A DNA stretch of 64,000 bases from NCBI GenBank assembly GCA_945871895.1, contig CAMBXP010000001.1, forward strand, positions 373 through 64,372, read 5' to 3'. Origin of the DNA: Chryseobacterium gleum. GTDB taxonomy: Bacteria > Bacteroidota > Bacteroidia > Flavobacteriales_C > GCA-002722245. Within the stretch, counting starts at the first letter, position 1, and each line of letters opens with the position of its first letter. Below, in pieces: positions 19,937 to 36,045 of this stretch. Below the pieces are notes generated by a model, which had not been told where the DNA came from, made no database searches, and saw only the letters and a list, made by a program, of their open reading frames with translations. The position numbers and the translations under genes are program-made.

Positions 19937-20695
19937 ATGTTGCGCTCTAGAATAATTCCTAGTTTATTGGTTCACAAAAAAGGCTTGGTGAAAACCGTAA
20001 ATTTTAAAGACCCCAAATATGTGGGTGACCCAATCAATGCGGTTAAAATTTTCAATGAAAAGGAAGTAGATGAGTTGATTGTGTTAGATATTGATGCTAC
20101 CGTAAACAAGAAAGAGCCCGACTTCGAAATGATTAAAAATTTGGCAGCTGAATGCAGAATGCCCTTTTGTTATGGTGGCGGTGTTACTTCGGTAGAACAC
20201 GCCAAAAAAATTATTAAACTGGGTGCAGAAAAAGTGGCTTTAAGTGCCGCGGCTATTGCTAATCCTGAGTTGGTGACCAAGATATCTGAAGAGATAGGTG
20301 CGCAAAGTGTAGTGGTGGTTTTAGATGTAAAGAAGAAAGGTTTGTTTGGGAAATACGAGGTGTTTACGCACAACGGAACCAAAGCTACAGGAAAATCTCC
20401 GTTTGAATTGGCCGAAGATTTTGAGCGCCGAGGAGTTGGTGAAATTGTATTGAACAATATTGATACTGAAGGCACTATGAAAGGCTTCGATTTTAAATTG
20501 ATTGATGGTGTGCGCGAGATCATTTCAAAGCCTATGACGGTGTTGGGTGGCGCAGGAGATGCAGAGGATATTAAAAAGGTAATTGATAAATATAAAATCA
20601 TTGGTGTGGCTGCAGGAAGCCTTTTTGTTTTTAAAGGAAAATACCGTGCGGTGCTCATTAATTACACGCCTTACAATTCTTTGTTTAATTTATAA
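19937..20695 (+). CDS. HisF-like cyclase subunit (O-antigen paralogue)
   Basis: TIM-barrel HisA/HisF pattern (VLDID, GGGV, VLNNIDTEGT, GGAG). Confidence 0.85.
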   Translation: MLRSRIIPSLLVHKKGLVKTVNFKDPKYVGDPINAVKIFNEKEVDELIVLDIDATVNKKEPDFEMIKNLAAECRMPFCYGGGVTSVEHAKKIIKLGAEKVALSAAAIANPELVTKISEEIGAQSVVVVLDVKKKGLFGKYEVFTHNGTKATGKSPFELAEDFERRGVGEIVLNNIDTEGTMKGFDFKLIDGVREIISKPMTVLGGAGDAEDIKKVIDKYKIIGVAAGSLFVFKGKYRAVLINYTPYNSLFNL

Positions 20696-21147
20696 TGTCG
20701 GTTTTAAAAAAAATATACAAGTATTTTATTCGCTCAAATAACGAATCGCGTTATTTGGTGATAAAGGCTTTTTTTTATTGCGCTATGGTGCGTTTTTTAA
20801 TGCTATTTGTAAAGTATAAACGTTACGAAAAACGCTTGGGAAAAAGAGGAGTAGAATCAACAGAAGAGATAAGTGCCGAGCAATTTGAGTTGGTTAAGAA
20901 AGTGCGAAATGCGGTGCTTAGTGTAAGCAAAAACACCTTGTGGGAAAGCAAGTGTATGGTGCAAGCACTCTCTGCAAAGTGGATGTTAGAGAAATACAAT
21001 ATTCCATCTACCATTTATTTTGGCATTATGAAAGACCTCGAAAATCCTTCGGAATTGAAAGCACATGCTTGGTTAAAAGTGGGCGAATATATTGCCACCG
21101 GTAGAGAAGGCCACAAAAGTTTTAAAGTGGTGAATTTTTATTCTTAA
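20695..21147 (+). CDS. Lasso peptide biosynthesis B2-like transglutaminase-fold cysteine peptidase (PF13471-like)
   Basis: 150 aa with a conserved Cys (ESKCMVQALS) and an HAW motif (KAHAWLKVGEY) spaced as in McjB-C/B2 proteins. The start overlaps the hisF-like stop codon (TAATG). Confidence 0.6.
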   Translation: MSVLKKIYKYFIRSNNESRYLVIKAFFYCAMVRFLMLFVKYKRYEKRLGKRGVESTEEISAEQFELVKKVRNAVLSVSKNTLWESKCMVQALSAKWMLEKYNIPSTIYFGIMKDLENPSELKAHAWLKVGEYIATGREGHKSFKVVNFYS

Positions 21148-22253
21148 CTGAATAAATAGGTGATAGGTCTCAACAAAGGATAGAGTATTCTTCTGCCAAA
21201 AGGAAGCTTCACAATATTCATATCTCTTAAAGGAAAAATACTCATTTGGTACAAGGTAAATTTCAAATGAGGCTTCATGAAAACGCGTTGTTTCCACTTG
21301 CTTATTTTCGAAATTTCTTTACCCGATAAAGATTTTAATCCTTGCAATACATAAGGTGCTTGCTTGTTATTTATTTTGTTCGAAAAGGCAGCAGGAATAG
21401 GCATTTCTAAAGCGACATTACATAAAGAAATAGTCCCTAAAAATAGGTTCTCAATTTTGTTTTTCTTGGCCAATTCAAATACTTCGTTTAATTCTTCTTC
21501 ATTGAATTTTTGCAGCAATAAAACAATATCAATTAACCACATCATTTTTTCCCAATAATGAATTTTACCATGCGCCATCAAATACAATAACGTGTAGGCG
21601 TTGTTCATTCTGTAGATTTTTCGATTGCAGTAATTTTCGGTAACAAGATATTCTGATGTGTCTCTGGGAATTGCTAGAATATACGGATTTTTAAACAGTT
21701 TGAAATGTACGTCTAGTTTACTTTTGGCTGGTGAAAAATAGCCTTTCTCATTGTCGATTTTTAAGAATAAGTCGTATTCTTTTGGGTTTAAATCGAAGTT
21801 CGGACTATCCAACACAAACCCTTTCTCCAATAGTATTTTTTCAAGTTTAGTAAGATCTGCTGGAGCAACACAAATGTCTACATCGGTGGAGGTGCGCATG
21901 TTGTTGTTGCCATAAATCATTTCGTTGATAGGATGCCCTTTAAACAACACCATATCTATATTATTTTCTTTTGCTAAATCAACAATCTTTAGCAAATCAG
22001 CTTGCAACAATAGATTTTTGGTGAGCGATTTTTTAGCTCTTTTTACAAGTGCTTTTTTAATATTTTCCAATTCAGGAAAACGCTCTATATGAGCGGCAAT
22101 AAAAGCATTTAGATTATTTCTTGATATGAATTGAATCAATTGATCGTGATCGTAATTCACAGCAGGTAATGGCTCTTTGGTATTGAACAGAATGGTTTTC
22201 ACTATGGCCAAAACCATTTGAAATTCGGGGGTGATATAAGAGTGTTTGTTCAA
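21144..22253 (-). CDS. Nucleotidyltransferase-fold protein of the PF14907 type that co-occurs with lasso kinase clusters
   Basis: hG-S...DVDICV pol-beta-like NTase motif, about 370 aa, next to the B2 gene. Confidence 0.5.
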   Translation of the reverse strand: MNKHSYITPEFQMVLAIVKTILFNTKEPLPAVNYDHDQLIQFISRNNLNAFIAAHIERFPELENIKKALVKRAKKSLTKNLLLQADLLKIVDLAKENNIDMVLFKGHPINEMIYGNNNMRTSTDVDICVAPADLTKLEKILLEKGFVLDSPNFDLNPKEYDLFLKIDNEKGYFSPAKSKLDVHFKLFKNPYILAIPRDTSEYLVTENYCNRKIYRMNNAYTLLYLMAHGKIHYWEKMMWLIDIVLLLQKFNEEELNEVFELAKKNKIENLFLGTISLCNVALEMPIPAAFSNKINNKQAPYVLQGLKSLSGKEISKISKWKQRVFMKPHLKFTLYQMSIFPLRDMNIVKLPFGRRILYPLLRPITYLFS

Positions 22254-22286: not shown

Positions 22287-22502
22287 TTATATTTTCTTTT
22301 TCCCCATATGCATGATCCAGCGCATTTTGTAGTTCTTTTTAAAGGCAATTAGAAATTCTTCTTTAGTAAAATTGAAGTGATGTTGTTGAGCAAAAAGCTG
22401 AATGCTCTCAAAACTTTTATTTTGAAGTGCTTTCATGTCATTTTGAAAATCGTTGTCTTCAAATGATTTTTGGAAGAATAGAATTGCGTCTTTTTCGCAC
22501 AT
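22287..22502 (-). CDS. Nif11-like domain small protein (71 aa)
   Basis: The pattern F.K...D..FQ..MKAL......E.I...A.Q..FNFTKEEF matches the Nif11/NHLP leader consensus (..aFleKvk.D..Lqeklka...eevv.lAke.GfeFtaeEl). Confidence 0.45.
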   Translation of the reverse strand: MCEKDAILFFQKSFEDNDFQNDMKALQNKSFESIQLFAQQHHFNFTKEEFLIAFKKNYKMRWIMHMGKKKI

Positions 22503-22546: not shown

Positions 22547-23719
22547 ATGGATATTGATTTTGAATCGATGGGTTTTTTACTTGATCCTCACGAAACATAC
22601 GATAAGATTTTCGCTAGCCAGCCTATATTTTATTCTCAAAAGTATGGGGCTTGGATTTTTGCTGATTTTGCTACCGTTAAGTTGGCATTAAGTGATGATG
22701 AAAACTTCGCATATAACAAAAGAATAAAGCCAGCTGGAATTCAACAAAGCAGTTCAGGCAAACTTTTGGCGAATTGGATTTTAAATCAAACAGAAGAAGA
22801 TCATAAAACATTTAAACGAATTATTGGCACTTTTTTTTCCTCAAGTGCTGTTGGTCGTTTGGAGTTATATATGCAAGAAGAAACGCGTAAGATTTGTGAC
22901 GGATTTAACGAACAAGAAATTGACTTAGCTGATGTGTATGGCAATTTTTTTCCAATGAAATTAATGACAAAGATTTTAGGACTTAGGGAAGTTGATTTTG
23001 ATGTTATCAAAAAAGCGTCAAGAATGGCCGAACATTACGCCTATTTTCCTAATACCGATAAAGACAAAAAAATATTTGAGTTTGCTGTTTTCACATTAGA
23101 GAAATTTGTTAAAAATATTCTTGAAAACAATCATTATAGTAATGACGGACTGATTCACCATTTAGCATCATTCTATAAAAATGGTGAGATTACCTTAGAT
23201 GAGTTAGTTAGCAATACAATTTTGTTTGTAATAGCTTCTATCGAAACAACGAGTTATTCCCTAAACAATGCGCTCATGTTGTTACTCAAGTATCCCGAGC
23301 AACGAGCCTTGTTTCTGCAGAATAGTGATAAAGCAAATCAATATATTGATGAGTTAATGCGCTTTGAATCTTCTGTAAGTTATGTTAGGCGTTTTGCAGT
23401 CAAAGATTTTGATATGGCAGGGAATAAAATTAAAAAAGGAGATTTGGTTTTACTACTTGTAAATGCAGCTAACCGAGACCCTCTTGTTTATAATGAACCT
23501 AATGAATTCAATCTCGAAAGAGAGCATATTAAAAATTTAGCTTTTGGGCATGGGGTGCACGTATGTTTAGGATTGCATTTAGCAAAAATGGAAATCAAAG
23601 TAGCTACTACTTATTTTTTTAATAGGTATCCAAAGTGTGAGCTAGTAAATGAAACAGTTCAGTGGAATGATAGGTTTGGCTTTAGGGGAATTGTAAAGAT
23701 GAATGTAAAACTGAATTAG
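22547..23719 (+). CDS. Cytochrome P450
   Basis: FGHGVHVCLG heme-thiolate loop, the EXXR motif (ELMRFES) and an ASIETTS I-helix. Confidence 0.9.
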   Translation: MDIDFESMGFLLDPHETYDKIFASQPIFYSQKYGAWIFADFATVKLALSDDENFAYNKRIKPAGIQQSSSGKLLANWILNQTEEDHKTFKRIIGTFFSSSAVGRLELYMQEETRKICDGFNEQEIDLADVYGNFFPMKLMTKILGLREVDFDVIKKASRMAEHYAYFPNTDKDKKIFEFAVFTLEKFVKNILENNHYSNDGLIHHLASFYKNGEITLDELVSNTILFVIASIETTSYSLNNALMLLLKYPEQRALFLQNSDKANQYIDELMRFESSVSYVRRFAVKDFDMAGNKIKKGDLVLLLVNAANRDPLVYNEPNEFNLEREHIKNLAFGHGVHVCLGLHLAKMEIKVATTYFFNRYPKCELVNETVQWNDRFGFRGIVKMNVKLN

Positions 23720-23720
23720 T

Positions 23721-25748
23721 ATGTCGGTATTACAAAATGATTTATTTAAGATTTTCAAGCAAGATATTTCTTTGCTTTCTTCGCCAGAACAGTTAAAGCA
23801 AATTGAAATAATTTCCAAGTTATTACCTCCTATTTATCGCTCTGCAATTGAAGTAAGATTGGGTGATGATGATACCGTTGATTTTCACGTTAATATAAAA
23901 ACTGAAGATGATATTTCCTCCATATTGTTGTTTTTTAAAGAGTCAGGGTTTTATGAGCAACCAAAATGGAGCCCTTTGCTACATTTTTTAGAATTGTGGG
24001 AAAGCAATACTTATGATTTCCGTCATATAATTCCAGGTATATTTTTAGAGTATGATTTGTCTAAAAATGATGAACTCTATCAGGTGCCGTCTTTGTTTGT
24101 TAAAGTTGCGGTAGAAAAATTGAGCGCACAGCAAACTTATTCTTTGATAGAAAAATTAATACTAACTGTAAAAGGCGAAGATTATTTTAATGTATTTAAA
24201 GCTTTGCTTAGGCAAATTATTTTTACTGAGAAAGATTGTAAACTAGGTTACTTAGGCTTTATGCTTTCTCGTCCTGAGGAACTTTTACGCATTAATATTT
24301 ATAAAATTACAGCAATAGAAGTTGTGCCATTTTTAGAGCGATGCGGATGGAAAGGCAATGCTGGTGTTGTGAAAGATTGGGCGAAAAAAGTATCTGTTTA
24401 CTGTGATAAATATGTAGTGAGTTTCGATCTGTACAAAGATGCGGTGTTGCCTGCTATAGGCTTGGAGTGTTTTTGGAATAAATTACCCGATGAAGAGCCA
24501 CGTTGGTCTTTATTACTCGATGAATTGATGGAGCAAAACTTATGTACTTTAAGCAAGAAATCTTTGTTTTTGGAATGGAAAAAGGAGTTACTTCCTTTCG
24601 AAACGCAACAACCTTGGCCAGAACATTTGGCGATAGAATCTTTGTTGCGAAATGAGAAAGATTTTTCGAAGATAAAACAGTTGGTGAGTCACCTAAAAAT
24701 TTCTATTTCTTCTTTGGGAGATATTTCTGCAAAAGCATATTTGGGCTATGGAAATATATGGTTAAATAATTCTAAGGAGAAGATTACTAGGTCTTTGGCT
24801 CAATGTGAAAGTAGCGAAGAATCTGCACAGAAAGCCATTCAGTTTTTACTAAGTGAGCAACAGCAGTCGGGTTTTTGGAAAGATTTTGAAATATTTAAAG
24901 GGGCAGCAGATCAATGGGTGACCGCTTATGTAGCATCTGCATTGAATGAGACGAATTCAAAGAGTGAAGTTCTAGCTGCAATCAATAGAGCGTGGTGCGC
25001 ATTGAAAGATACTTTCAGAGAGGGTGAAGGATGGGGCTATAATTTTTATACTCCTTGTGATGGAGATAGCACCGCATGGAGTTTATATCTTGCCTCATTT
25101 TGTGATCCATCATTTTATATGAGGCATAAAACGCTTATTGAAAGATATAAGGGTGCCGATGGTTTGCTGACTACCTATGTTGACGAAGAGGATATATTGC
25201 GTTACATAAACCTTCAACCTGAATCGGGAATACTGGGTTGGAACTCTTCTCACCTTTGTATTTCAGGTGTTGCAGCGAAATTGGAGGGATCTTGTTCCAT
25301 TGAAGCTATAGCAAGTAAGCAAAACGAGCAGGGCTATTGGCAGGGCTATTGGTGGCAGCACCATAGCTACACTACTTACTATTGTTTGAAAGCCTTAATG
25401 GCAGAAGATAGTAAGTTTGATGGGCAAATCAATAAGGCAAGAAGGTGGTGGAGAGAGCAAGATTTTGCATCAATAGACAGCATTTTTTATCGTGCGTTAT
25501 GGGTTGAAATTGGATTGTTACTTAGAGAAGATAAAAGTATTATTGATAATGCCATAGCCTCTATTATGAAGGAGCAATTGGTGAGCGGATCATGGATAGG
25601 AGATGCGCGTATTATAGTGCCGATGCCCAATCATCTTTTACAAAATTCATCTTTAAGTTGGCTGAAGCATGATGTGAATGGTATTTTCACTACAGCTACT
25701 TGTTTACGTTTGTTAACGAATTACCAAAATCATTATGGAAAAAAGTAA
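23721..25748 (+). CDS. Two-domain protein: unknown N-terminal about 350 aa plus a C-terminal prenyltransferase/squalene-oxidase-repeat (QW-motif alpha/alpha-toroid) domain
   Basis: C-terminal repeats QQQSGFWKD, NEQGYWQGYWWQHH and QLVSGSWIGD resemble terpene-cyclase QW motifs. There are only 2 nt between the P450 stop and this start. Confidence 0.5.
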   Translation: MSVLQNDLFKIFKQDISLLSSPEQLKQIEIISKLLPPIYRSAIEVRLGDDDTVDFHVNIKTEDDISSILLFFKESGFYEQPKWSPLLHFLELWESNTYDFRHIIPGIFLEYDLSKNDELYQVPSLFVKVAVEKLSAQQTYSLIEKLILTVKGEDYFNVFKALLRQIIFTEKDCKLGYLGFMLSRPEELLRINIYKITAIEVVPFLERCGWKGNAGVVKDWAKKVSVYCDKYVVSFDLYKDAVLPAIGLECFWNKLPDEEPRWSLLLDELMEQNLCTLSKKSLFLEWKKELLPFETQQPWPEHLAIESLLRNEKDFSKIKQLVSHLKISISSLGDISAKAYLGYGNIWLNNSKEKITRSLAQCESSEESAQKAIQFLLSEQQQSGFWKDFEIFKGAADQWVTAYVASALNETNSKSEVLAAINRAWCALKDTFREGEGWGYNFYTPCDGDSTAWSLYLASFCDPSFYMRHKTLIERYKGADGLLTTYVDEEDILRYINLQPESGILGWNSSHLCISGVAAKLEGSCSIEAIASKQNEQGYWQGYWWQHHSYTTYYCLKALMAEDSKFDGQINKARRWWREQDFASIDSIFYRALWVEIGLLLREDKSIIDNAIASIMKEQLVSGSWIGDARIIVPMPNHLLQNSSLSWLKHDVNGIFTTATCLRLLTNYQNHYGKK

Positions 25749-26016
25749 AGGGCTTTCGCAATCAAAACACACTCATTATTTTGCTATACCCACTTAAATT
25801 CCTGCTTTAATAATAAATATCCTTCTTCACCTTTGTTGGGGATTTTTTATTGTTACCATAATTATAGTAAATGGTGAAGCCCTTATGGTCGTTCCTTTAT
25901 ATTATTTTATGGAACTACCTTTCATCCAACTTGGAAAGTACTAAATAAAAAAGCATCTCGAAAATTAATAAGTACCGATATCAAAGTTTTTTTTATCTTA
26001 GCCAAAAATTACAATT

Positions 26017-26127
26017 ATGGAAAACAAGAAAACTTGGGTTAGTCCCCAATTTAATTTAGTGGATGTAGATTCAACGGCTTCTGGACCCTTTGGAACTTCG
26101 GTGGAATCAGGATCATACGGTTCATAA
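26017..26127 (+). CDS. Candidate lasso peptide precursor (36 aa), MENKKTWVSPQFNLVDVDSTASGPFGTSVESGSYGS; not in the ORF track
   Basis: ATG at 26017 and TAA at 26125. It has Thr at -2 of the putative leader/core junction (..DSTA|SGPFGTSVE..). The core SGPFGTSVE with Glu9 parallels the paeninodin core AGPGTSTPD with Asp9. The C-terminal Ser sits immediately upstream of the HPr-kinase-like gene. Confidence 0.5.
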   Translation: MENKKTWVSPQFNLVDVDSTASGPFGTSVESGSYGS

Positions 26128-26187
26128 TACAGAAGATTCTAGTTGTTGGTGTGGAGGAAATTTTCCATACTTGTTTAGTCGAATTTT

Positions 26188-27096
26188 TTGTATTTTCGCC
26201 CCATGCAAAAAAAGTACATCGCAGGGGGAATCATCATTGAAACAGATATTGAATTTCCCGAGTTAATTTTGACAGAAGGCCCAACAGATGTTGTTTTGGC
26301 TTATGGCAAAGTGCCTGGGGAGCTGCCTAATGTTAAAAATGAAAAAGCTTTGTTTTCAAGCAATGAAAACGAAGTATTGTTTAGAATGCCCGATATCGCG
26401 AGATATTTAATTGAAGGGTATTCAAAAATCACCATAGAATTAATAGACGAAAAAAGAAAAGCTGATGCTGAAAAGTATATTCTTACTTTTATTTTAGGCG
26501 TTTTATCTTTCAAAAAAGGCTTTTACCCTTTGCATGGCGGTGGCGTTATACACAACGGCGAAGCGTATTTGTTTACTGGTCATTCTGGTGCTGGTAAATC
26601 TACCACTATGGCAGGTTTGCAACAAAGAGGTTTGCAGCCCGTGGGCGACGATATAGCGAATCTTTTTGTGAAAGATGGTAAAGTATATGTTCATCCTTGT
26701 TTTCCGCGTTTTAAACTGTGGAAAGACTCATTGAATTTTTTAAATAAGAAGGGTTCTGGAGAGTATCATTTGCGCAGCGACATGGAGAAATTTTTAGTGC
26801 CTATGGGCGATGATTTTTCTATTGAACCTGTGCCAGTAAAAAGAATCTATTTGTTGGTGGAAGACCGCAATTTCGAGTATTCATTTAAGGAAATTAAAGG
26901 GAAAGAAAAATTGCAGCGTTTAAAAGTAAATAGCTACAAACCTTGGATGGTAAAAGCTTTTTCTTTGAACCAATTGCATTTCGGATTGATGAATGATATT
27001 GTGGGTAAGCTTGAAATCACAGAATATCACCGGCCGCTCGACAAAGCAAACCTTGAGAAAATGTACGATTTATTGATCGAAAACATCAAGGCCTAA
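26188..27096 (+). CDS. HPr-kinase-like serine kinase (candidate lasso peptide kinase)
   Basis: HGGGVIHNGEAYLFTGHSGAGKSTT P-loop, as in HprK C-terminal domains and lasso precursor kinases. Confidence 0.6.
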   Translation: MYFRPMQKKYIAGGIIIETDIEFPELILTEGPTDVVLAYGKVPGELPNVKNEKALFSSNENEVLFRMPDIARYLIEGYSKITIELIDEKRKADAEKYILTFILGVLSFKKGFYPLHGGGVIHNGEAYLFTGHSGAGKSTTMAGLQQRGLQPVGDDIANLFVKDGKVYVHPCFPRFKLWKDSLNFLNKKGSGEYHLRSDMEKFLVPMGDDFSIEPVPVKRIYLLVEDRNFEYSFKEIKGKEKLQRLKVNSYKPWMVKAFSLNQLHFGLMNDIVGKLEITEYHRPLDKANLEKMYDLLIENIKA

Positions 27097-27965
27097 TGTT
27101 TACTCCACAAAAGAGAATAATTTGGCTAACGTCTTATCCTAAGTCGGGAAATACTTGGATGCGCTTGTTTTTACATGCTCTGCACACAGGTTCTAGCGAG
27201 TTACTAAATTTAGAAGACATTGAAGCTACCAACGGCATTGCTTCTTCTCGCGCATTAATCGACAATAATTTAGGTGTATACACTTCTGATATGCCCGATC
27301 TAGATGTACAGAAATTAAGAGGAGAAGCCTACAAATATTGGTCATCGGTATTGACAGATGATGTTATTGTAAAAGTACACGACGCAGCTTTTCATCGCGG
27401 AATCGTCACTTTTCCTAAAGAAGTAACGAAGAAAGTAATTTTCATTGTGCGCAATCCTTTTGATATGGTGGCTTCTTATGCTAACCATATGGGCTGCGAT
27501 ATCAAAATGGCTGTTTGGATGTTGTGCGATGGAAACAATACTTTAGCTAAATCGAAAAACAGATTAGGAACACAAGTGTCTCAGTACATGGGCTCGTGGA
27601 GCGATTATTACAACAGCTGGAAGAATTTGTATCGTGATGAAATGATAGTGGCGCGCTACGAAGACATGAAGCACGATTCACTCAATACTTTTAGAAAGGT
27701 GGTTGATACTTTGGGTTGGAACAAAACGGATGAAGATATTTTAAAAGCATTAGAGGCCAGTAAATTCGATAAAGTAAAGAGTTTAGAGAACGATAAAGGC
27801 TTTAAAGAGAAACCTCCCAAAACGGAAGCTTTTTTTCGTAAAGGTCAAACTGGAGGATGGAAGAATGAAATTACTGCAGAGCAAGCTCAAATTCTAGTTG
27901 ACAGACATTTTTATACTTTATTGGAATTAGGGTATATTGATGAAAAAGGGGTCATTTTAGTGTAA
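27096..27965 (+). CDS. Sulfotransferase-domain protein
   Basis: YPKSGNTWMR 5'-PSB motif and a downstream RNP..D 3'-PB region. The start overlaps the kinase stop. Confidence 0.75.
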   Translation: MFTPQKRIIWLTSYPKSGNTWMRLFLHALHTGSSELLNLEDIEATNGIASSRALIDNNLGVYTSDMPDLDVQKLRGEAYKYWSSVLTDDVIVKVHDAAFHRGIVTFPKEVTKKVIFIVRNPFDMVASYANHMGCDIKMAVWMLCDGNNTLAKSKNRLGTQVSQYMGSWSDYYNSWKNLYRDEMIVARYEDMKHDSLNTFRKVVDTLGWNKTDEDILKALEASKFDKVKSLENDKGFKEKPPKTEAFFRKGQTGGWKNEITAEQAQILVDRHFYTLLELGYIDEKGVILV

Positions 27966-28039
27966 ACTAAAATGCCCCCTTTTTCATTTGATTGTGCGGT
28001 GGAAAAAAAGATTTGAATACAATAAAATAAACGAAAAAG

Positions 28040-29863
28040 ATGTCTAGTATTTACGGTTACACAGGAAAAAAAGAAGCCCAAAAATTGATGAGTAATGCCT
28101 TACGTCATTGGCAGCCCGATCGAGAAAATTTTATAGAACGCGAAGCCTTTACTTTGGGCGCATTAGAGCTTTTCAAAACACCCGAATGTCCGCTTGTTGC
28201 GCTGCCTTATGCCTATAAAAATTTCCACATAGTAGCAGATTGTAGAATAGATAATCGTGAGGAGTTGGCAAAGGAATTAGGTGTTAGCGACATTTCAAAA
28301 CACAGTGACATCGAATTTATTGCGCGTGCATATGAGAAGTATGGAGAGGATGCGCCAAAGAAATTAAAGGGAGATTTTGCCTTTGTCATTTGGGATGAAA
28401 GTAATCAAGAGCTTTTCGCTGCTACAGATCACTTTGGTGTTCGAACTTTGTATTATACAGTAGTTGAAAATCAATTGATTTTTGCTAGTGAAATGAAGGG
28501 GATTTTGGCCTATCCTACTTTCAAAAAAGAGTACAATGAAGCCTATATCGTAAGTCAGTTTTCTGCCTTGCAAATTCCTATTCAAGATACCTTTTATTTG
28601 AATTTGTTTTTGCTTCCTCCAGCGCATCATTTTACTTTTAAAAACGGCAAATTAGACCAAAAAAAATATTGGACATTAGGAGATACTGTTGTTGAAATAC
28701 CCGCTACTGTTGCCCAGCAAGAAGCCGAATTTAATCGATTGGCTTATCAAAGTGTTCGCTCACGATTACGCAGTTACAAAAAAATTGGTGCCGAGGTGAG
28801 TGGAGGGTTGGATTCTACAGGTATTGCTGCTGCGGCTATGGAGATTTTAGGTAAGGGGCACCCTTTTTATTCTTATTGTTATGGTAAGCCCGATGTTTCT
28901 GCGGGAGATCACGACCAAAAAGACGATACCCATGTAGTGCGTGAGATGTGTAAAAAATACGATATTGAGCAATATTTCACGGTGGTGAATGAGAAAGATT
29001 TGTTAGCTGATGATTTATTGAAGACAATGTGCACTGTTTACGATGATATAGAGAGCAATGGTGTGCCTTTGTTTACCGCTTCATTTTTGCCACACGCTCA
29101 GAAAAATGATGTTGGTATTATGTTTTCGGGATGGGCTGGAGACCAAATGGTAACCGATACCTGTGGTGGTTTTCCTGAAGCTTTGGCGTACGAAAAAAAC
29201 TATATAGGTTTGTGGAAAGATATTATTCGTAGGCATAATTTTGTAGGCAGTGTTGCACGTTTTTGGGTGTATGCTATTAAGTGCTGGAACAGCAAAGGTT
29301 TTTACAATCTCAATGTAGATAAGCAAAGAAAACTGTTGCAAGATTTTCATTTAAAAAAGTCATTTATTCAAAAATACAAATTAGACACATTACCAGGGTT
29401 GCGTTATTATTTAAAAAGTTGTACCGACATACGTACTTATCATTTTCGCAATCTTCAACATGCTGGTATTCAAAAACGAACTTGTGATCATGTGTTAATG
29501 GGCAAGCACTTTAAAGTAGATTATCGTTTTCCTATGTTGGATTTAAATTTCTTGGAATACATTAATTGTTTGCCTTTTGATACCATCGCGCCGAAGGGGA
29601 AAAATAGGTATCTGTACAAACAATTTGCTGCACCATTGGTACCACAGGAATTACTTAGAGTACATAAAAGCAAAGTGCCTACGACACCCTTTGCTTATAA
29701 GTACATGAAGGATAATTTGCCTTTTTTTATAGAACAATACAAATCGTTGGAAAAAAGTACGTTTAATGATTTTGTGGATTCTTCATCGTTAGATGTTGAT
29801 TCAGGCAATTCAAATCACAAAGAGTATTTGCGCATGTATTTCTTTGCTAAAAAGATGCGTTAG
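28040..29863 (+). CDS. Asparagine-synthetase-like lasso cyclase (lasso C protein)
   Basis: AsnB-like N-terminal domain without the Cys2 nucleophile (MSSIYGY) and the SGGLDS PP-loop. Length about 600 aa. Confidence 0.75.
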   Translation: MSSIYGYTGKKEAQKLMSNALRHWQPDRENFIEREAFTLGALELFKTPECPLVALPYAYKNFHIVADCRIDNREELAKELGVSDISKHSDIEFIARAYEKYGEDAPKKLKGDFAFVIWDESNQELFAATDHFGVRTLYYTVVENQLIFASEMKGILAYPTFKKEYNEAYIVSQFSALQIPIQDTFYLNLFLLPPAHHFTFKNGKLDQKKYWTLGDTVVEIPATVAQQEAEFNRLAYQSVRSRLRSYKKIGAEVSGGLDSTGIAAAAMEILGKGHPFYSYCYGKPDVSAGDHDQKDDTHVVREMCKKYDIEQYFTVVNEKDLLADDLLKTMCTVYDDIESNGVPLFTASFLPHAQKNDVGIMFSGWAGDQMVTDTCGGFPEALAYEKNYIGLWKDIIRRHNFVGSVARFWVYAIKCWNSKGFYNLNVDKQRKLLQDFHLKKSFIQKYKLDTLPGLRYYLKSCTDIRTYHFRNLQHAGIQKRTCDHVLMGKHFKVDYRFPMLDLNFLEYINCLPFDTIAPKGKNRYLYKQFAAPLVPQELLRVHKSKVPTTPFAYKYMKDNLPFFIEQYKSLEKSTFNDFVDSSSLDVDSGNSNHKEYLRMYFFAKKMR

Positions 29864-29902: not shown

Positions 29903-30193
29903 GTGGAAAATCAACTTGATATGGAATTGACTCAAAAAATCGCTCGCAGTGATAATTTCGTTTTTAACGAGGTAGATGGCGAGTTAGTAATGATGAATAT
30001 TGAAACTGGTGCTTATGCATCATTGAATGAAACAGGGAAATCAATTTGGACTTTGTTAGATGCCCCTAAAAGTTTATCTGAAGTAGTTAGTTCTTTGGTT
30101 GAAGAATACGAAATCGATCAAGCTACTTGTGAAAAAGAGGTGTTGCCATTTGTAGAAAATATGTTGAAAAGTGAAGTTTTAATAAAAGCATAA
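29903..30193 (+). CDS. PqqD-family RiPP recognition element (lasso B1 protein)
   Basis: 96 aa with the FNEVDGELVMMNIETGAYASLNETGKSIWTLL pattern typical of PqqD/B1 proteins. Confidence 0.7.
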   Translation: MENQLDMELTQKIARSDNFVFNEVDGELVMMNIETGAYASLNETGKSIWTLLDAPKSLSEVVSSLVEEYEIDQATCEKEVLPFVENMLKSEVLIKA

Positions 30194-30315
30194 TAATGGA
30201 AATGAATAATGTAAAGAAAGTTTGGATTTCGCCAGCTTTTACCCAAGAGTTATTGATTAACACTAATAAACTCCCCAATGCTATAGAAACCACCACTTCT
30301 TTTAGTACCTGATGC

Positions 30316-31224
30316 ATGTATCGCTATCGAATTCAATCATTAAATGAAAAACAGCAGAATCTTTCTGCTGTTTTTGTTGATGCCCATATCAAAGAAATTG
30401 AAACCTGTATTAAAGGTATAAGAGATGTTTTTGATGTGCTTTGGAGTACTTCTACAATTGATTCTTCTTACCCTTCCATTTCACAAGAAATTCAAACTTA
30501 TAAATCCCGACAAAGAAAAAATGATTTAGCGCTTTATCCTGTTGGTTTTTGCTATCCTATTACTCAGTTTTGTTTTAAAATATTACATCAAAACCTTCAA
30601 GAAAATACGCAACATATTGTACAGCGCTATTTGGATGAGGGTGGTGTTTTGAAAATTATTTGGGGTGATTTACGCGGTGAATATTTTCAAACAGCAATAC
30701 AGTTAGGCGATTGGTACATTGATTTGGCGTACGATGCGATAGATAGAAATAAACCTAAAATTCGTTGCGCTCGTTTTCATGAATCTGACTTTAAAGACAT
30801 CACTTCTTTTCAGCAGTATATTTGTATTAAAGAACAGTACCATAAAGGAGAAATATATATAAACAATATTCTACCCGAATTATTTCCTCATTTTCCTTTT
30901 ATTTTTGAGAATACTGAAGGGCGAATTTCGATAGAGGAATCTGAATATGTGCGCGCTTTGTTGGAGGACAAAGATACAGATGTGCTGACAAGCTATCTCC
31001 GTGATGAATCGGCTTTGAAATTTCTTGATCTTGAGCAAAAGGAAAGAATTAAATCGGCATTGTCGAAAATTGGCGAAGCTTATGTTTACTTTCCCTTCTT
31101 ACAATTTAAAGAATTAGATACGAGCCAATTACTTGCTAAAATTGAAAAAGAAAAAATTAATTCAATGCCCTCTGTTTTACCTAAAGTGGTGAACAACATC
31201 AATTTCATGCTTTCACTATGTTGA
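30316..31224 (+). CDS. Hypothetical protein (302 aa) inside the RiPP cluster
   Basis: No family recognised from sequence. Same strand as the C and B1 genes. Confidence 0.3.
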   Translation: MYRYRIQSLNEKQQNLSAVFVDAHIKEIETCIKGIRDVFDVLWSTSTIDSSYPSISQEIQTYKSRQRKNDLALYPVGFCYPITQFCFKILHQNLQENTQHIVQRYLDEGGVLKIIWGDLRGEYFQTAIQLGDWYIDLAYDAIDRNKPKIRCARFHESDFKDITSFQQYICIKEQYHKGEIYINNILPELFPHFPFIFENTEGRISIEESEYVRALLEDKDTDVLTSYLRDESALKFLDLEQKERIKSALSKIGEAYVYFPFLQFKELDTSQLLAKIEKEKINSMPSVLPKVVNNINFMLSLC

Positions 31225-31227
31225 TAT

Positions 31228-32430
31228 TTACAACAATTCAATTTCGCTTTTCAACTTTTTCAATTCATATTTAAGGGAGATTTCGTCTCCCTTTTTTACG
31301 TTTTTTACTTTGGGTAAATAGAATATTTTTAATCCCCAATGGTTGTCTTCATTTATTTTATTTTGTGCTAAAGATAGTGTGTTTTCTTCGCTCAGTGTCG
31401 CTTCAAAATAAACATGAATTCCGTTCAATTCTCCTTCTTTATCTATGGTTATTTGATGCGTACTTAATTTTTGAAAATCAGTCTTTTCATCGAAATGTAC
31501 ATCTATTACTTTAAGAGGAGAAGATAAAGCCTTGCATTTCTTTAAATCTACATTACTCATGTTTAGCAGAACTGGCTTTTCATCAACATAATTTTGAAAA
31601 GCAGAGAAATCAACCTGGTAATCTTTTTTCCAGGTTTTGATGTTGTTTTCGTGCACCAAACTATTGGTGTATTTTTCATTGGGCATTTCAAAAGTTTGTA
31701 AGTAAATCGCTATGCTTTCAGGAATCAGTTTTGCCTTGGGCGTTAACAATCGCTTTTTAGCATCTTCAAAAGTGCCTAATATACCTTCGTCGAACGCGTC
31801 GTTTCCAATAATTTCACTAATTAAAACACTAGCCTTTTCGGGCAGCTCTATATCTCTAGAATCCCCTTTAATTAAAGTGATTTTATCTTCTAAACCGTTG
31901 GCTTTAAATACTGCCCTGGCTACCTCAATAAACTCGGTTCTTTCTATTGCATAAACATGTTTTGCACCGCACATCGCCGCTGTAGCCGCTAAAATACCGT
32001 TGCCAGTTCCTATATCTAAAACAATATCATTGGGTGTTACTTTAGCCCGAATGGCTTTTTGAAAAGCTAAGGTGCGCGTTTTGTCATTCAACATTCTTAC
32101 ATGAACAGGAAATGAATCAAACTTACTACCGTGAAAACTAAAGGTATTTTTTGCTTCGTCTTTCACATCAAAAAATCCTTTTTTTAATAGCTCATGAAAG
32201 TTGCTGCTTACGCCAAAAAAATCATTTTTGTGTTTGCATTTTTCGGCCATTAATTTAGTGCCTTCTTCAATGCTTTTCCATTTGCTAAAAATATCAAGAA
32301 TAATGAGTGAAGCGTAGTTTAAAGGCAATTTCTGTTGATCGAATTTTACTACCCAGCCGAGTTCAGTAAATTCAACTTTTAAGCCTTTTTTAAAACGAAT
32401 GATATCTTTCTTATTCATAAAGACAAACAT
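31228..32430 (-). CDS. Class I SAM-dependent methyltransferase, PRMT-like
   Basis: VLDIGTGNGILAATAAMCGA motif I, a post-I acidic residue (YAIE), and the SEI/THW-like region of protein arginine MTases. Confidence 0.65.
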   Translation of the reverse strand: MFVFMNKKDIIRFKKGLKVEFTELGWVVKFDQQKLPLNYASLIILDIFSKWKSIEEGTKLMAEKCKHKNDFFGVSSNFHELLKKGFFDVKDEAKNTFSFHGSKFDSFPVHVRMLNDKTRTLAFQKAIRAKVTPNDIVLDIGTGNGILAATAAMCGAKHVYAIERTEFIEVARAVFKANGLEDKITLIKGDSRDIELPEKASVLISEIIGNDAFDEGILGTFEDAKKRLLTPKAKLIPESIAIYLQTFEMPNEKYTNSLVHENNIKTWKKDYQVDFSAFQNYVDEKPVLLNMSNVDLKKCKALSSPLKVIDVHFDEKTDFQKLSTHQITIDKEGELNGIHVYFEATLSEENTLSLAQNKINEDNHWGLKIFYLPKVKNVKKGDEISLKYELKKLKSEIELL

Positions 32431-32466: not shown

Positions 32467-34125
32467 ATGCAAAAACTTAAGGCGGTACTTTCCTTTTTCC
32501 AATTGATGCTTTCCCACTTTCGGTGGAAGGTTATTCTCATTATACTTTTAGGAATTTCATTTTCTGTGTTTCAAGGTGTTGGTATCGTAATGGTGATACC
32601 GCTCTTAGAAGCTTTTCAGCACAAGGCCAAATCGCGTTTCACTCCCTTTTTTGAGTATTTCAATTTTGAGCAAACTTTAGGCAATTTACTTTTGCTTTAT
32701 TTTTTGGTGCTGCTGATGTTCGCCATTTTTAAGGCCTTGCAGATTTTGTACACGCAGCGCACTATCTCTAAATTTTCCAACAAAATAAATATCGATTCAA
32801 TACAAAAATTGTTGCACGCCAATTGGGAGTTTTATTTAAAAGTTCCTTCTTCGCAATTGCTCAATATGCTCAATACAGAAGCGCGTCAACTGCGTTCTTT
32901 GGCCAATCAACTGTTTCAATTTATTCAAAACGTAATTTTGATTGTTATTCAATTGTTTTTTGCTTTTTGGATTTCGGCTAAACTTACCTTGGTACTAATT
33001 TTTGTTTTGGCTATTTTGTTTGTTATGCAGCGTTTTGTGTTTAGAAGGAATTACGATTTGGGCCGCGGACAAATTAAAAATTCAGAAGGAATTCAAAAGT
33101 ATTTGAACGAGACTTTTAAAGGAATCAAATTGCTTAAATTACATGGTTTAGAATTGCAACGAGGTGAGGAATATAAAGCTCATTTAGATGGCATGTACCT
33201 CAATGAAGAGAAGAAAGCAAGGATTGAGGCTATGAGCGATTTGGTATACACCTTAAGCGCATCCATGCTGCTAATTGCTATTATTTGGTATAGCTTAACT
33301 TTTACTGCTATCACCGTGGGTTCTTTGCTTATTTTGTTGGTGTTATTCTCGCGTGTTATTGCGCAAACTTTAAGTTTGGTGAAGGTGAGTTCTCATATTA
33401 CGAACATGATTCCATCTTATGTGCGGTTTACTGAGGTGTTGGCCATTGCCGAACAACACCAAAATAATTCTCCGGTGCCGAAAGATAAAATGGCTATTGA
33501 TTCCATAGAATTGCGCGATATTCATTTCGCTTTCGCCGATAAAAAAATATTAGAAGGCATTAACCTTAAATTCGAAAAAGGAAAATTTTATGTGCTAACC
33601 GGACCAAGCGGTGTGGGTAAAACCATTACTTCCGATTTGATTTGCGGACTAATTACTCCCAAAAGTGGCGATATTTTAATCAACGGAGAAGTAAAATCTA
33701 CCGAAGAATTAAAATACTATCAGTCTTCTACTTCTTACGTTTTGCAAGATACTGTGATGTTTGGTTCTACCGTAAAAGCGAATATTACTTTCTTTGAGAA
33801 GTACAGTGACGATGAAATTAATGCCGCAGTAGATAAAGCCGGCTTGCGCAGTTTACTTGATAAATTACCCGATGGTTTAGATAGCGAAGTAAAAGAAGAC
33901 AATCGCGGTTTCTCGGGCGGCGAACTTCAACGCATGGCTATCGCTCGCGCCATCATTAGAAAAACTCCGCTTATCATTTTAGATGAGGTAACGAATACAC
34001 TCGACAGAAAAAATGAAGACATTATTTTGGCTACCATCAACAACATCAAAAAAGATGGAATTGTGGTGCTGATTACACATAAAGAATATTTGTTTGATTT
34101 GGCTGATGAGGTGGTGAGACTGTAG
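32467..34125 (+). CDS. ABC exporter with fused TMD and NBD (lasso D-type candidate)
   Basis: Six N-terminal TM helices, Walker A GPSGVGKT, signature FSGGELQR and Walker B ILDEVT. Confidence 0.85.
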   Translation: MQKLKAVLSFFQLMLSHFRWKVILIILLGISFSVFQGVGIVMVIPLLEAFQHKAKSRFTPFFEYFNFEQTLGNLLLLYFLVLLMFAIFKALQILYTQRTISKFSNKINIDSIQKLLHANWEFYLKVPSSQLLNMLNTEARQLRSLANQLFQFIQNVILIVIQLFFAFWISAKLTLVLIFVLAILFVMQRFVFRRNYDLGRGQIKNSEGIQKYLNETFKGIKLLKLHGLELQRGEEYKAHLDGMYLNEEKKARIEAMSDLVYTLSASMLLIAIIWYSLTFTAITVGSLLILLVLFSRVIAQTLSLVKVSSHITNMIPSYVRFTEVLAIAEQHQNNSPVPKDKMAIDSIELRDIHFAFADKKILEGINLKFEKGKFYVLTGPSGVGKTITSDLICGLITPKSGDILINGEVKSTEELKYYQSSTSYVLQDTVMFGSTVKANITFFEKYSDDEINAAVDKAGLRSLLDKLPDGLDSEVKEDNRGFSGGELQRMAIARAIIRKTPLIILDEVTNTLDRKNEDIILATINNIKKDGIVVLITHKEYLFDLADEVVRL

Positions 34126-34160: not shown

Positions 34161-34382
34161 TTAATCTGTAATGAAAATGACTTCATTATTTGAGTAGCTT
34201 AGACTTCCTTGGCGCAACATATATTCGGTTTTATGTGCTTTTACAAATTCTTCTGCGGTAAAATCGAAATTTAACTTTTTGGCTTGTTCTAAAATCTCAG
34301 AAACCTCCATATGATTGGTATCCAAAATTATTTCCTTCTTTCTCACTTTAGAGATGAATTGTACAGCGCTATTGATACTCAT
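34161..34382 (-). CDS. Nif11-like small protein, paralogue of 22287..22502
   Basis: From the internal Met: MSINSAVQFISKVRKKEIILDTNHMEVSEILEQAKKLNFDFTAEEFVKAHKTEYM. It aligns along its length with the first Nif11-like ORF (F.K., NF.FT.EEF, K..Y.M). The longer track ORF 34161..34442 probably over-extends. Confidence 0.4.
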   Translation of the reverse strand: MSINSAVQFISKVRKKEIILDTNHMEVSEILEQAKKLNFDFTAEEFVKAHKTEYMLRQGSLSYSNNEVIFITD

Positions 34383-34596
34383 GATGAAATTTATGCAGAG
34401 CCAGGGTGGCCATGGTGGTGGTGAATAAATTGTTTTGATCAATTAAGAAGTTAGCCGTCCCATCATTTTTAAGCATTTGAGCGTCGCCCCTCCAATTACC
34501 TTTTTCTGTTTGGTGTTGTAAGATGAATTCAACAATGGGTTCGATATTGAACGCAGATAGTTTGCAATGCATAGCACTTAAGGTGAGCAGCGACAA
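34369..34596 (-). pseudogene. Remnant of a second QW-repeat gene: a 75-aa ORF homologous to the last 65 aa of the 23721..25748 protein
   Basis: FILQHQTEKGNWRGDAQ...LFTTTMATLALHKFHHEY aligns with SIMKEQLVSGSWIGDAR...IFTTATCLRLLTNYQNHY at the C-terminus of the 675-aa protein. Confidence 0.4.
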
Positions 34597-34685: not shown

Positions 34686-35855
34686 ATGAATTTTGCACAA
34701 ATTATACATCCTATTTCTGTCGAAGAGTTCTTCAACGATTACTACGAAAAGAAGCCTTTATACATTGCGCGCAGCAACGCTTCTTATTATCATACTTTTT
34801 TAAACCTGCCTGAAATTGATTCCTACATTCAGTTGAAGCAAACATTTTCTCCCAACGTTAAAATGGCTTTTGAAGGCAAAGAAGTTTCGCCTTTGTTGTT
34901 TTGCGATAACGACAATGATGTTGCTCCGTTTAAAGCAAATCCGCAAAAAATGTTGGCTTTATTTAAGCAGGGCTATACCATAAAATACGATAAATTACAC
35001 CAAACCTATCCGCCCCTGGCAAGCAAGGTTTCTTTCTTGGAAAATGAAATAGGTTTGAAAATTCGAACGAGTTTATATATCACTCCTGAGAACTCGCAGG
35101 GCTATGGTGTTCACACCGATAGACACGATGTGTTGGCTTTACAACTCAATGGAACTAAGATTTGGAAAGTGAAATATTCAGAAGAAATTTTGCCTTCTTT
35201 ATACGACGGAAAAGTGTTGCCTACGAATTGGGAAGATGGCGCGCAAGAAATTCATTTGCAGGCTGGTGATTTTTTCTATTGTCCGCGCGGACTAGCACAT
35301 GTCGTATACACCAAAGATGAATCTTCTATTCATTACACTTTAGGTTTTCAGCCTATGTATGGCTACAAAGCCATGGAGTATTTAAGTGAGTTAGCCTATG
35401 AGAATGCTTTTTTTAGAAAAGCACTTCCCAATAAATTATTTAGTGAGGGGCAAAAGGAAAGGTTTGCCAATGAATTTAAAAATGAATTCAAAAAGTTTAT
35501 TGATGGTATTGATATCGATGCATTGCTAAACAAGAAAAGTAAAGAGAGTACTAGTTCTCTCATTGAGTTTAGCGAGAATCGTTTTTTATCTCAGTTTTAT
35601 CAGCCTAGCGCCTCAGATATTTTTATGATCAATCCAAATATTTCGTGGCAATTGAGTTTTACCAAAGTAGCCTGCCGTATTGAATTAGATGGAATTAGCA
35701 ACGACTTCCCTTTTCTTTTAAAAGATTTTTTCTCTTCTTTAAAAAATAAAACTGAATTTTCAATTCACGATATGGGAACAGAATTGAATGAGAAGCAAAA
35801 ATTGAAATTGGTTAAGCGTTTGATGAAACTGAAAATGATTGAGGTAAAAAAATAA
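34686..35855 (+). CDS. JmjC/cupin-4 family 2-oxoglutarate-dependent oxygenase-like protein
   Basis: GVHTDRHDVLALQLNGTKIWKV (H-x-D plus a double-stranded beta-helix) and a downstream H (LAHVVY), as in RoxA/YcfD-like hydroxylases. Confidence 0.55.
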   Translation: MNFAQIIHPISVEEFFNDYYEKKPLYIARSNASYYHTFLNLPEIDSYIQLKQTFSPNVKMAFEGKEVSPLLFCDNDNDVAPFKANPQKMLALFKQGYTIKYDKLHQTYPPLASKVSFLENEIGLKIRTSLYITPENSQGYGVHTDRHDVLALQLNGTKIWKVKYSEEILPSLYDGKVLPTNWEDGAQEIHLQAGDFFYCPRGLAHVVYTKDESSIHYTLGFQPMYGYKAMEYLSELAYENAFFRKALPNKLFSEGQKERFANEFKNEFKKFIDGIDIDALLNKKSKESTSSLIEFSENRFLSQFYQPSASDIFMINPNISWQLSFTKVACRIELDGISNDFPFLLKDFFSSLKNKTEFSIHDMGTELNEKQKLKLVKRLMKLKMIEVKK

Positions 35856-36045
35856 TCCTAACTGCTTAGAGAAAGGATTATTTCTTTGAATTTAATTTGA
35901 ATTAAGAAGACATTTCTGCTCTTTCTGACCCACCTGGAGATCCTGACAGAGTCTCTTCTATTTCCATTTCAGAAATTTGTGGTGCAATCCAATTTTTTTT
36001 TGCTGTTTGCATAATTGCTACTTTTTGGTAAATATAATGAAATAA

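Follow-up and report, generated by a model that had tools for sequence, protein, structure and literature searches.

A predicted lasso peptide precursor gene with a hypervariable ring segment in a kinase-type gene cluster of an uncultured Flavobacteriales

Results

A short open reading frame in a split-B lasso cluster

The 64,000-nt stretch of contig CAMBXP010000001.1 that was analyzed in this study (hereafter the window) carries a complete split-B lasso peptide gene cluster, extending from ~20.7 to 36.0 kb and flanked by hisF and asnS, within which a 36-residue open reading frame (ORF), A1, lies directly upstream of a kinase gene. A1 was singled out as a lasso precursor in a preliminary description of this DNA, and its coordinates and translation (MENKKTWVSPQFNLVDVDSTASGPFGTSVESGSYGS, from an ATG at 26017 to a TAA at 26125-26127) were exactly as quoted there, as was its absence from the ORF track, which is explained by the 60-residue limit of that track. 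Based on the evidence presented below, we consider that A1 is probably (at a rough probability of 0.78) translated and is one of three precursor genes in a lasso pathway of the paeninodin type, kinase-associated and split-B, in an uncultured member of the Flavobacteriales. The source lineage is known only from metagenome assemblies, its relatives coming from lakes and streams, and the exact A1 peptide was identified in NCBI and ENA assemblies, where it had been gene-called, unnamed and in the same context, on five contigs from four samples.

A1 divides into a leader, MENKKTWVSPQFNLVDVDSTA, and a predicted core, SGPFGTSVESGSYGS. The leader has the sequence W-V-S-P and a threonine, Thr20, at position -2 of the junction, and the core has a small residue (Ser1) at its start and an acidic one (Glu9) within positions 7-9, where the Asp or Glu of a lasso ring is expected. 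The C-terminus, Tyr-Gly-Ser, is of the [aromatic]-x-[S/T] type that is kept both in the family described below and in PadeA, the paeninodin precursor. A motif combining these features (KKxW[IVL][SAK]P-x9-T-x-[small], in ORFs of 25-70 residues with Ser or Thr at the end) occurred three times in the window, each time within the cluster, versus no occurrence in 150 composition-preserving randomizations.

The cluster of A1 also encodes the macrolactam synthetase (C), a PqqD-type recognition element (B1) for peptides that are synthesized ribosomally and modified post-translationally (RiPPs), and a transglutaminase-like leader peptidase (B2), and, as judged by the domains of its products, it is a cluster that holds every gene required by a split-B lasso pathway. 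In addition, there are genes for a kinase (K), a sulfotransferase (S) and a nucleotidyltransferase (N), as in the paeninodin- and pseudomycoidin-type clusters of Firmicutes. These assignments were made with Pfam and NCBIfam scans, and B2 and N were found through the gene tables of the A1-carrying contigs. B2 and N had gone unnoticed in the preliminary description, as had the genes for a P450 and a prenyltransferase-terpene cyclase fusion immediately upstream of A1 and the variable ring cassette described below.

A family of precursors with a common leader

The preliminary description recognized a single precursor, but an ORF listing down to 20 residues gave two more with the same leader, A2 and A3. 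A2 is wedged between B1 and a conserved gene, orf302 (with 2 and 3 nt separating it from the former and the latter, respectively), and its predicted core, which has Lys as the first residue, would give a ring of seven members; the A2 variant is designated P0003, and variants of A2 differ in the tail (TTTSFST, TTSSWST). A3 is convergent with a JmjC gene and has a homologue at the same site in a related locus (L004), and in its variants P0005-P0007 it is the predicted ring that varies (SGSPGGSE, SGAPAGTE, SGAPGGSE). Both ORFs supplement A1 rather than displacing it as a better candidate, A1 being the top-scoring of the three on a leader profile that had been derived from these peptides themselves.

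A profile of 33 kinase homologues led to 19 related loci (8 from a genome scan and 11 from a metagenome scan; individual loci carry numbers with the prefix L), in which 18 further precursor-like ORFs were identified by pattern and leader hidden Markov model, bringing the total to 21 Flavobacteriales peptides; the family statistics given here thus rest on about 20 peptides. All 21 have KKxW..P in the leader, with Trp replacing the Tyr of Y-x-x-P, a Thr exactly 13 residues past that Trp, a junction of the type T-x-[S/A/T]-G, an acidic residue within core positions 7-10, and Ser or Thr as the last residue, in most cases after [Tyr/Phe/Trp/Met]-x. The assignment of Thr to position -2 is well supported by this constant spacing, which PadeA shares when counted from its Tyr. 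Exactly six residues follow the predicted acceptor in 12 of the 21 peptides, and the short tail to which attention had been drawn is therefore a feature of the clade: its length of six was correct, but it is not a peculiarity of A1.

Two further observations on these peptides are recorded here. In four precursors (L001 11963-12100 and 19674-19808, L002 14989-15120, and L013 9957-10094) the first acidic residue is at core position 10, beyond the reported ring sizes of 7-9, which would imply either larger rings or a cleavage shifted by one residue. Truncated or degenerate precursor copies lie beside intact ones, all on the minus strand, at L013 9641-9742, L001 11848-11943 and L006 3884-3937, and indicate that precursor genes arise and disappear rapidly here.

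A variable cassette within a constant ORF

Using a 41-residue in-frame read-through (26002-26124) as the query, orthologues were identified at the same site in sister strains, P0160 (...DSTA/SGPYNASVESGTYGS) and P0161 (...DSTA/AKSYPNPTESGSYGS), and the small ORF is in this sense conserved. Across the three strains, 456 aligned nt were 99-100% identical apart from core codons 1-8, a stretch of 24 nt in which L028 was 79% and L031 33% identical to the window. Elsewhere, the strains agreed, or differed at one site per segment, in the leader, Glu9, the tail SG[ST]YGS and the intergenic regions on both sides. Relative to the window, L031 differs at 16 of the 24 nt of this cassette and at none in the remaining ORF and the two flanking intergenic regions, with the reading frame intact despite the 16 substitutions, and L028 has seven differences within the ORF, all seven of them amino-acid-changing. 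The variable stretch starts precisely at core codon 1, and Glu9 is invariant while residues 1-8 vary. Since variation is almost confined to the cassette, it marks the leader-core junction (DSTA/S) and the ring acceptor at the positions where the preliminary description had placed them. At the level of sequence, this pattern is strong evidence that the ORF is translated, that the core starts as predicted and that Glu9 and the tail are functionally constrained.

The same comparison bears on the possibility that A1 is a chance frame, or a decayed remnant in the promoter or leader region of the kinase operon, that gives rise to no product. Such a reading could draw on the shortness of A1 and its lack of a curated family match, on the empty A1 site in L001, L002 and L013, and on the degenerate precursor remnants in related loci. 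However, the frame remained intact through 16 substitutions in 24 nt, the leader and tail do not vary, every change observed is non-synonymous, the motif was found three times against none expected, and there is homology to PadeA; we therefore regard a frame without a product as extremely improbable.

With regard to the origin of the variation, no second copy of the cassette flanks that could act as a template repeat was found within the window. Since there was no such repeat, and since the substitutions hit all four bases and are not adenine-specific, a diversity-generating retroelement was ruled out.

K and the C-terminal serine

In Pfam searches, K matched Hpr_kinase_C below the gathering score (1.9e-3), and its matches to HprK_rel_A and ScmC were also weak. 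The best match of the K family profile in the PDB was HPr kinase/phosphorylase (HprK/P; 1.4e-6), and the AlphaFold (AF2) model of K, which had a predicted local distance difference test score (pLDDT) of 93.4, matched the PEPCK and HprK/P folds. Supporting the designation of K as a kinase was that H111, K132, D149 and D150, all invariant in the 33 homologues, match the His-Lys-Asp-Asp motif that is essential in lasso kinases by mutation (PMC9266682). PadeK, ThcoK, SyanK and PsmK phosphorylate the C-terminal Ser of the linear precursor (PMC9266682, PMC8498205, PMC6993621), and lasso kinases show little regard for the rest of the precursor sequence (PMC9266682, PMC8498205). By analogy with these enzymes, we infer that Ser36 of A1 would be phosphorylated by K on the linear precursor. 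The pairing of a C-terminal Ser with a kinase gene that was pointed out previously is borne out by the 22 of 22 family peptides that end in Ser or Thr and by the HprK/PEPCK fold and His-Lys-Asp-Asp residues of the neighboring gene product. The distance between the two genes needed correction: it is 75 nt, not 60 nt, because the earlier figure had been counted from an upstream in-frame TTG at 26188, and gene calls and all 297-residue homologues place the kinase start at the ATG at 26203. S follows K in 15 of the 16 related loci with DNA beyond K, the exception being L007.

Other genes and signals of the cluster

The features of the cluster are listed in Table 1. The arrangement of B2, N (on the opposite strand) and K is kept in L001, L003, L007, L013, L014 and L017. 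For orf302, searches of Pfam, NCBIfam and the PDB gave no match, and among its 314 representative homologues the central domain is elsewhere fused to SapC, glycosyltransferase or LicD/cytidylyltransferase domains. Its candidacy as a divergent B2 protease was dropped once the true B2, with its Transglut_core3 domain, had been located.

Table 1. Coordinates of the A1 gene, its segments and the other features of the lasso cluster in the window
Feature	Coordinates	Strand	Evidence or remark
B2, transglutaminase-like leader peptidase	20695-21147	+	Transglut_core3 4.3e-19
N, NTP_transf_5 nucleotidyltransferase (PsmN kind)	21144-22253	-	PF14907 6.1e-36
orf71, Nif11-like small protein with conserved C-terminal NYxMRW	22287-22502	-	weak Nif11 match
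Cytochrome P450	22547-23719	+	p450 5.8e-29
PT-TC (675 aa), predicted fusion of an ABBA prenyltransferase and an MstE-type class II terpene cyclase	23721-25748	+	
A1, predicted 36-aa lasso precursor gene	26017-26127	+	leader 21 aa, core 15 aa, stop
A1 leader	26017-26079	+	KKxW..P motif, Thr at -2; 98-100% nt identity among strains
Hypervariable cassette, core codons 1-8 (SGPFGTSV)	26080-26103	+	predicted ring residues preceding the acceptor
Glu9 (predicted isopeptide acceptor), tail SGSYGS and stop	26104-26127	+	96-100% nt identity
Stem-loop between A1 and K	26126-26194	+	minimum free energy -23.5 kcal/mol, z -4.1; 0/200 shuffles as stable
K, HprK-like lasso kinase, 297 aa	26203-27096	+	
S, PAPS-type sulfotransferase, 289 aa	27096-27965	+	Sulfotransfer_1 1.2e-24
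Terminator-like hairpin closing A1-K-S	27939-27988	+	22-nt arms, 95% complementary; -29.4 kcal/mol, z -8.2
C, lasso macrolactam synthetase (Asn-synthase-like)	28040-29863	+	NF033535 1.8e-74 (below curated cut-off); Asn_synthase 4.7e-27
B1, PqqD-type RiPP recognition element	29903-30193	+	PqqD 2.5e-18; NF033536 lasso_PqqD_Bac 2.2e-22, 79 bits (cut-off 80)
A2, second precursor-like ORF	30196-30312	+	leader MEMNNVKKVWISPAFTQELLINTN, core KLPNAIETTTSFST
orf302, conserved protein	30316-31224	+	syntenic next to D in L003 and L004
PRMT-like (protein arginine) methyltransferase	31228-32430	-	PRMT_C 1.5e-14; PrmA 1.5e-9
D, ABC exporter	32467-34125	+	ABC_membrane, ABC_tran
Remnants of a second PT-TC gene and a second Nif11-like ORF	34161-34596	-	Nif11-like remnant at 34161-34442
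JmjC/cupin oxygenase, candidate hydroxylase	34686-35855	+	JmjC_2 2.1e-20; syntenic with an A3-type precursor in L004
A3, third precursor-like ORF	35902-36012	-	leader MQTAKKNWIAPQISEMEIEETL, core SGSPGGSERAEMSS

The four precursors of L003 (14415-15122 and 17966-18091) all have Arg before a C-terminal Thr or Ser, with Tyr ahead of the Arg in three, and in the window an Arg is present at core position 9 of A3 and none in A1. The conservation of the PRMT-like methyltransferase gene in the cluster, taken with this distribution of Arg, suggests precursor-specific tailoring. Two lasso clusters of the kinase type, or several additional Asn-synthase-like genes with 22-26% identity to C close to the main cluster, were also observed in single genomes, as in L007 and L004 (which are on the same contig, JBJTOK010000036), L003 and L014.

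The stem-loop that follows A1, which contains a terminator-like match at 26148-26171 and is invariant in the three strains, is possibly an attenuator or an mRNA stabilizer. Together with the strong hairpin after S, it suggests an A1-K-S unit with a structured element past the precursor, and the three genes are probably transcribed as one. No Rfam family was matched in the A1 region, and a sigma-70 promoter scan is uninformative for Bacteroidota.

A prenyltransferase-cyclase fusion and a P450 in the cluster

The 675-residue protein encoded upstream of A1 (PT-TC, for prenyltransferase-terpene cyclase) shows homology in its C-terminal half to the class II terpene cyclase MstE, which consists of a single domain (phmmer 4.5e-29; Foldseek TMt 0.78), and has a stretch, CDGDSTAW, at the position of the class II acid motif (read by eye). 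Its N-terminal half has an ABBA aromatic-prenyltransferase fold, for which Foldseek matches were AmbP1, EpzP and Orf2 (pLDDT of the AF2 model, 85.5). The MstE homology and the ABBA domain ruled out a LanC-like or lyase-cyclase enzyme acting on phospho-Ser. Homologues of PT-TC were identified in Chitinophaga dinghuensis and on two other Bacteroidota contigs, in each case within a lasso cluster of the kinase type (homologue coordinates: L024 10001-12061, L026 10001-12076, L027 10001-12187), the gene order in the Chitinophaga locus being B1-B2-C-A-K-PT/TC-N. On the basis of this gene content, we assign PT-TC as an integral gene of kinase-type lasso clusters in both the Flavobacteriales and the Chitinophagales.

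NctPC and ChrPC (Hubrich et al., 2024, via PMC13290415) are prenyltransferase-cyclase RiPP maturases that transfer geranylgeranyl onto a Trp and cyclize it. PT-TC resembles them in being a fusion of a prenyltransferase, with an N-domain of the ABBA fold, and an MstE-like class II cyclase within a RiPP cluster. It is unlike NctPC in that it is embedded in a lasso cluster and that the A1 core has no Trp to serve as the acceptor. Candidates for the acceptor are the Tyr or Phe of A1 and the Trp of the Nif11-like orf71. Homologues of orf71 are near the PT-TC gene in seven of seven PT-TC loci, mostly adjacent to it, although in L002 the homologue lies past the P450 genes and in L027 it is weak (E 0.1). 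These ORFs of ~70 residues share a conserved C-terminal [N/D]-[Y/W]-x-[M/I/Y]-R-W (...NYKMRW... in the window), and further examples are at L001 16221-16421, L013 14182-14382 and 4283-4489, L002 695-901, L024 13238-13450 and L026 13263-13448. Proteins of the orf71 type may have an accessory role, or they may serve as a second RiPP precursor, one containing Trp, inside the lasso cluster.

Between sister strains, the strongly diverged parts of the cluster are the P450 (two alleles with 49% protein identity; window 22547-23719 versus L028 4528-5703 and L031 1-996), PT-TC (94%) and the A1 ring, and nothing else. The cluster is otherwise 94.5-99.8% identical at the nucleotide level, with at least 97% for all other genes but B1. 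Ring position 4 of A1 is a Phe where the P450 allele is that of the window and a Tyr where it is the other allele, and one P450 allele serves two different A1 cores. A1-type cores next to the P450 always have an aromatic residue at ring position 3-5 and a Tyr at -3.

These data raise the question of whether A1 is mainly a substrate of the P450 and PT-TC, the product being a terpenoid-RiPP hybrid, a lasso or linear peptide in which an aromatic residue bears a cyclized polyprenyl group. Arguing for it are the architecture that PT-TC shares with NctPC, which geranylgeranylates and cyclizes on a peptide Trp, the presence of PT-TC genes inside kinase-type clusters of Chitinophaga and two other Bacteroidota contigs, four different gene orders in which an A1-like precursor adjoins PT-TC in the same orientation, and the restriction of strong divergence to the P450, PT-TC and the A1 ring. 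Conversely, the characterized prenyltransferase-cyclases use Trp, which the A1 core lacks; a Nif11-like peptide with an invariant Arg-Trp beside every PT-TC is an equal or better substrate candidate; P450s often oxidize the terpene and not the peptide; and one P450 allele occurs with two different A1 cores. On balance, a terpenoid-modified A1 product appears unlikely.

Discussion

The proposed pathway and the evidence that weighs against it

In the pathway that we propose for A1, the PqqD-like B1 would bind the 21-residue leader (KKTWVSP...DSTA), B2 would cut after Thr-Ala, C would link the freed amine of Ser1 to the side chain of Glu9, producing a 9-membered ring with the six-residue tail SGSYGS, and D would export the product. 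The sequences themselves show the ORF, the pattern of its conservation, the enzyme families and the synteny; the chemical steps, their order, the ring size and a threaded topology are all predictions from gene content and homology, and the phosphorylation and sulfation of the product are likewise predicted. The lactam would have a mass of 1399.59 Da, which one phosphate would raise to 1479.56 Da. Ring residues 1-8 would represent a natural variable cassette under diversifying selection, and the leader, Glu9 and tail would be held constant because the enzymes need them.

Several observations weigh against A1 as a lasso precursor. The NCBIfam scan of A1 returned no curated precursor model at E <= 1, which is weak evidence because precursor models are clade-specific and the query is 36 residues long. 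No perfect match to the Bacteroidetes promoter consensus (TAnnTTTG) was seen upstream of A1 by eye, no tool having been used. The leader has a Trp where characterized lasso leaders have a Tyr. In the nearest species-level relatives (L001, L002 and L013, with kinases 94-97% identical), DNA homology to the window ends just downstream of A1, and the site upstream of K has no precursor, the precursors being elsewhere in the cluster. Finally, characterized lasso peptides are 15-30 residues long (PMC6993621), which puts the 15-residue A1 core at the lower limit, and a 3-residue loop with a 3-residue end may be poorly suited to holding a threaded fold.

The last point leads to a variant of the proposal in which A1 is processed as described above but the mature product is an unthreaded branched-cyclic lariat, or else is threaded by means of a bulky C-terminal plug, candidates for which are a Ser15 that carries poly-phosphate or hexose, a sulfated Tyr13, or a cross-link made by the P450 from Tyr13 to the aromatic residue at ring position 4. 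Only six residues follow the ring, and wild-type pseudomycoidin, from the same type of kinase and nucleotidyltransferase cluster, was isolated as a branched-cyclic peptide in which a bulkier tail residue restores threading (PMC6993621). K, N, S and the P450 are all in the cluster, and the aromatic residue at ring position 3-5 with Tyr at -3 in every P450-adjacent A1-type core fits a plug. Against a lariat is that a six-residue tail with an aromatic or bulky residue at -3, as found in 12 of 21 peptides, suggests a selected, functional architecture. We hold a lariat or plugged product to be possible, albeit doubtful.

A more speculative reading, which we put forward as improbable, is that A1 is a minimal 15-residue lasso scaffold, in which the eight ring residues form a natural combinatorial library kept up in a wild population of Flavobacteriales and the constant tail docks a stack of modifications. 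That stack would comprise phosphorylation and glycosylation of Ser, sulfation of Tyr, and the chemistry of the P450 and the prenyltransferase-cyclase, which would either tie the short tail to the aromatic residue of the ring or attach a cyclized terpene. If true, these modifications would be combined in a way that has yet to be observed on a lasso peptide.

As a predicted lasso system, the cluster is a complete and compact example from Bacteroidota whose three very short cores (14-15 residues), at or below the size of characterized lasso peptides, test the minimum lasso size. The population data locate a leader-core junction and a ring acceptor without experiment, and the variation of the cassette shows positions that the enzymes tolerate, which is useful for engineering. 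The sulfotransferase is paired with the kinase, and the literature surveyed has yet to assign it a role in lasso clusters. The nesting of PT-TC and a P450 in lasso clusters of two Bacteroidota orders points to terpenoid-peptide chemistry, and it is this module and the hypervariable ring cassette that most deserve follow-up.

Comparison with known systems

Hypervariable core cassettes are reportedly known from the patE-type genes of cyanobactin pathways (Donia et al., 2006), in which, as in A1, the DNA of the pathway is said to be near-identical between strains and ~24 nt for the core peptide to be replaced. The patE system differs in belonging to another RiPP class, and in A1 variation affects just those residues of the ring that precede the acceptor, with the tail left constant.

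Kinase-tailored lasso peptides in the literature that we surveyed are from Firmicutes and Proteobacteria, and no report from Bacteroidota was found there. In the psm cluster of Bacillus pseudomycoides, a kinase and an NTP_transf_5-type enzyme act on the C-terminal Ser of pseudomycoidin, adding a phosphate and then a hexose; pseudomycoidin unthreads easily, and the tail modifications may matter for its topology (PMC6993621). Unlike A1, it is from a Firmicute, has a core of 20-plus residues, and its cluster has no sulfotransferase, P450 or PT-TC.

The closest comparison is with PadeA, and by its sequence and context A1 is assignable to the kinase-tailored lasso precursors that PadeA typifies. 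For this comparison we used what we take to be the PadeA sequence, leader MKKQYSKPSLEVLDVHQTM and core AGPGTSTPDAFQPDPDEDVHYDS. This sequence gives both printed masses exactly, 1209.50 and 963.85 (PMC5067487). BLASTP of A1 against it gave 44% identity over 25 residues, with an E value of 1e-5 for a single comparison. The likeness of A1 to paeninodin that was claimed previously thus holds for the precursor as a whole, but it is mostly in the leader and in GP(x)GTS, and the ring aligned without a gap, which had been described as closely similar, is identical at just 2 of 9 positions. Both leaders have KK-x-[Y/W]-x-x-P and a Thr at -2, 13 residues past the aromatic residue, and both cores start with [A/S]-G-P, have an acidic residue at position 9 and end in Tyr-x-Ser.

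The pade cluster of Paenibacillus dendritiformis (Zhu et al., 2016, via PMC9266682 and PMC8498205) has, as here, split B1 and B2, C, D and an HprK-like kinase; the Ser of Tyr-x-Ser is phosphorylated on the linear precursor, and sulfotransferase and nucleotidyltransferase genes occur in related Firmicutes clusters (PMC9266682, PMC8498205). A1 is unlike PadeA in being from Bacteroidota, in having a Trp and not a Tyr in its leader, and in the lengths of its core (15 versus 23 residues) and tail (6 versus 14). Its cluster differs from pade in having three precursors, with B2 and N upstream and A1 directly before K-S, and in its extra genes for a P450, PT-TC, a PRMT-like methyltransferase, a JmjC protein and orf302.

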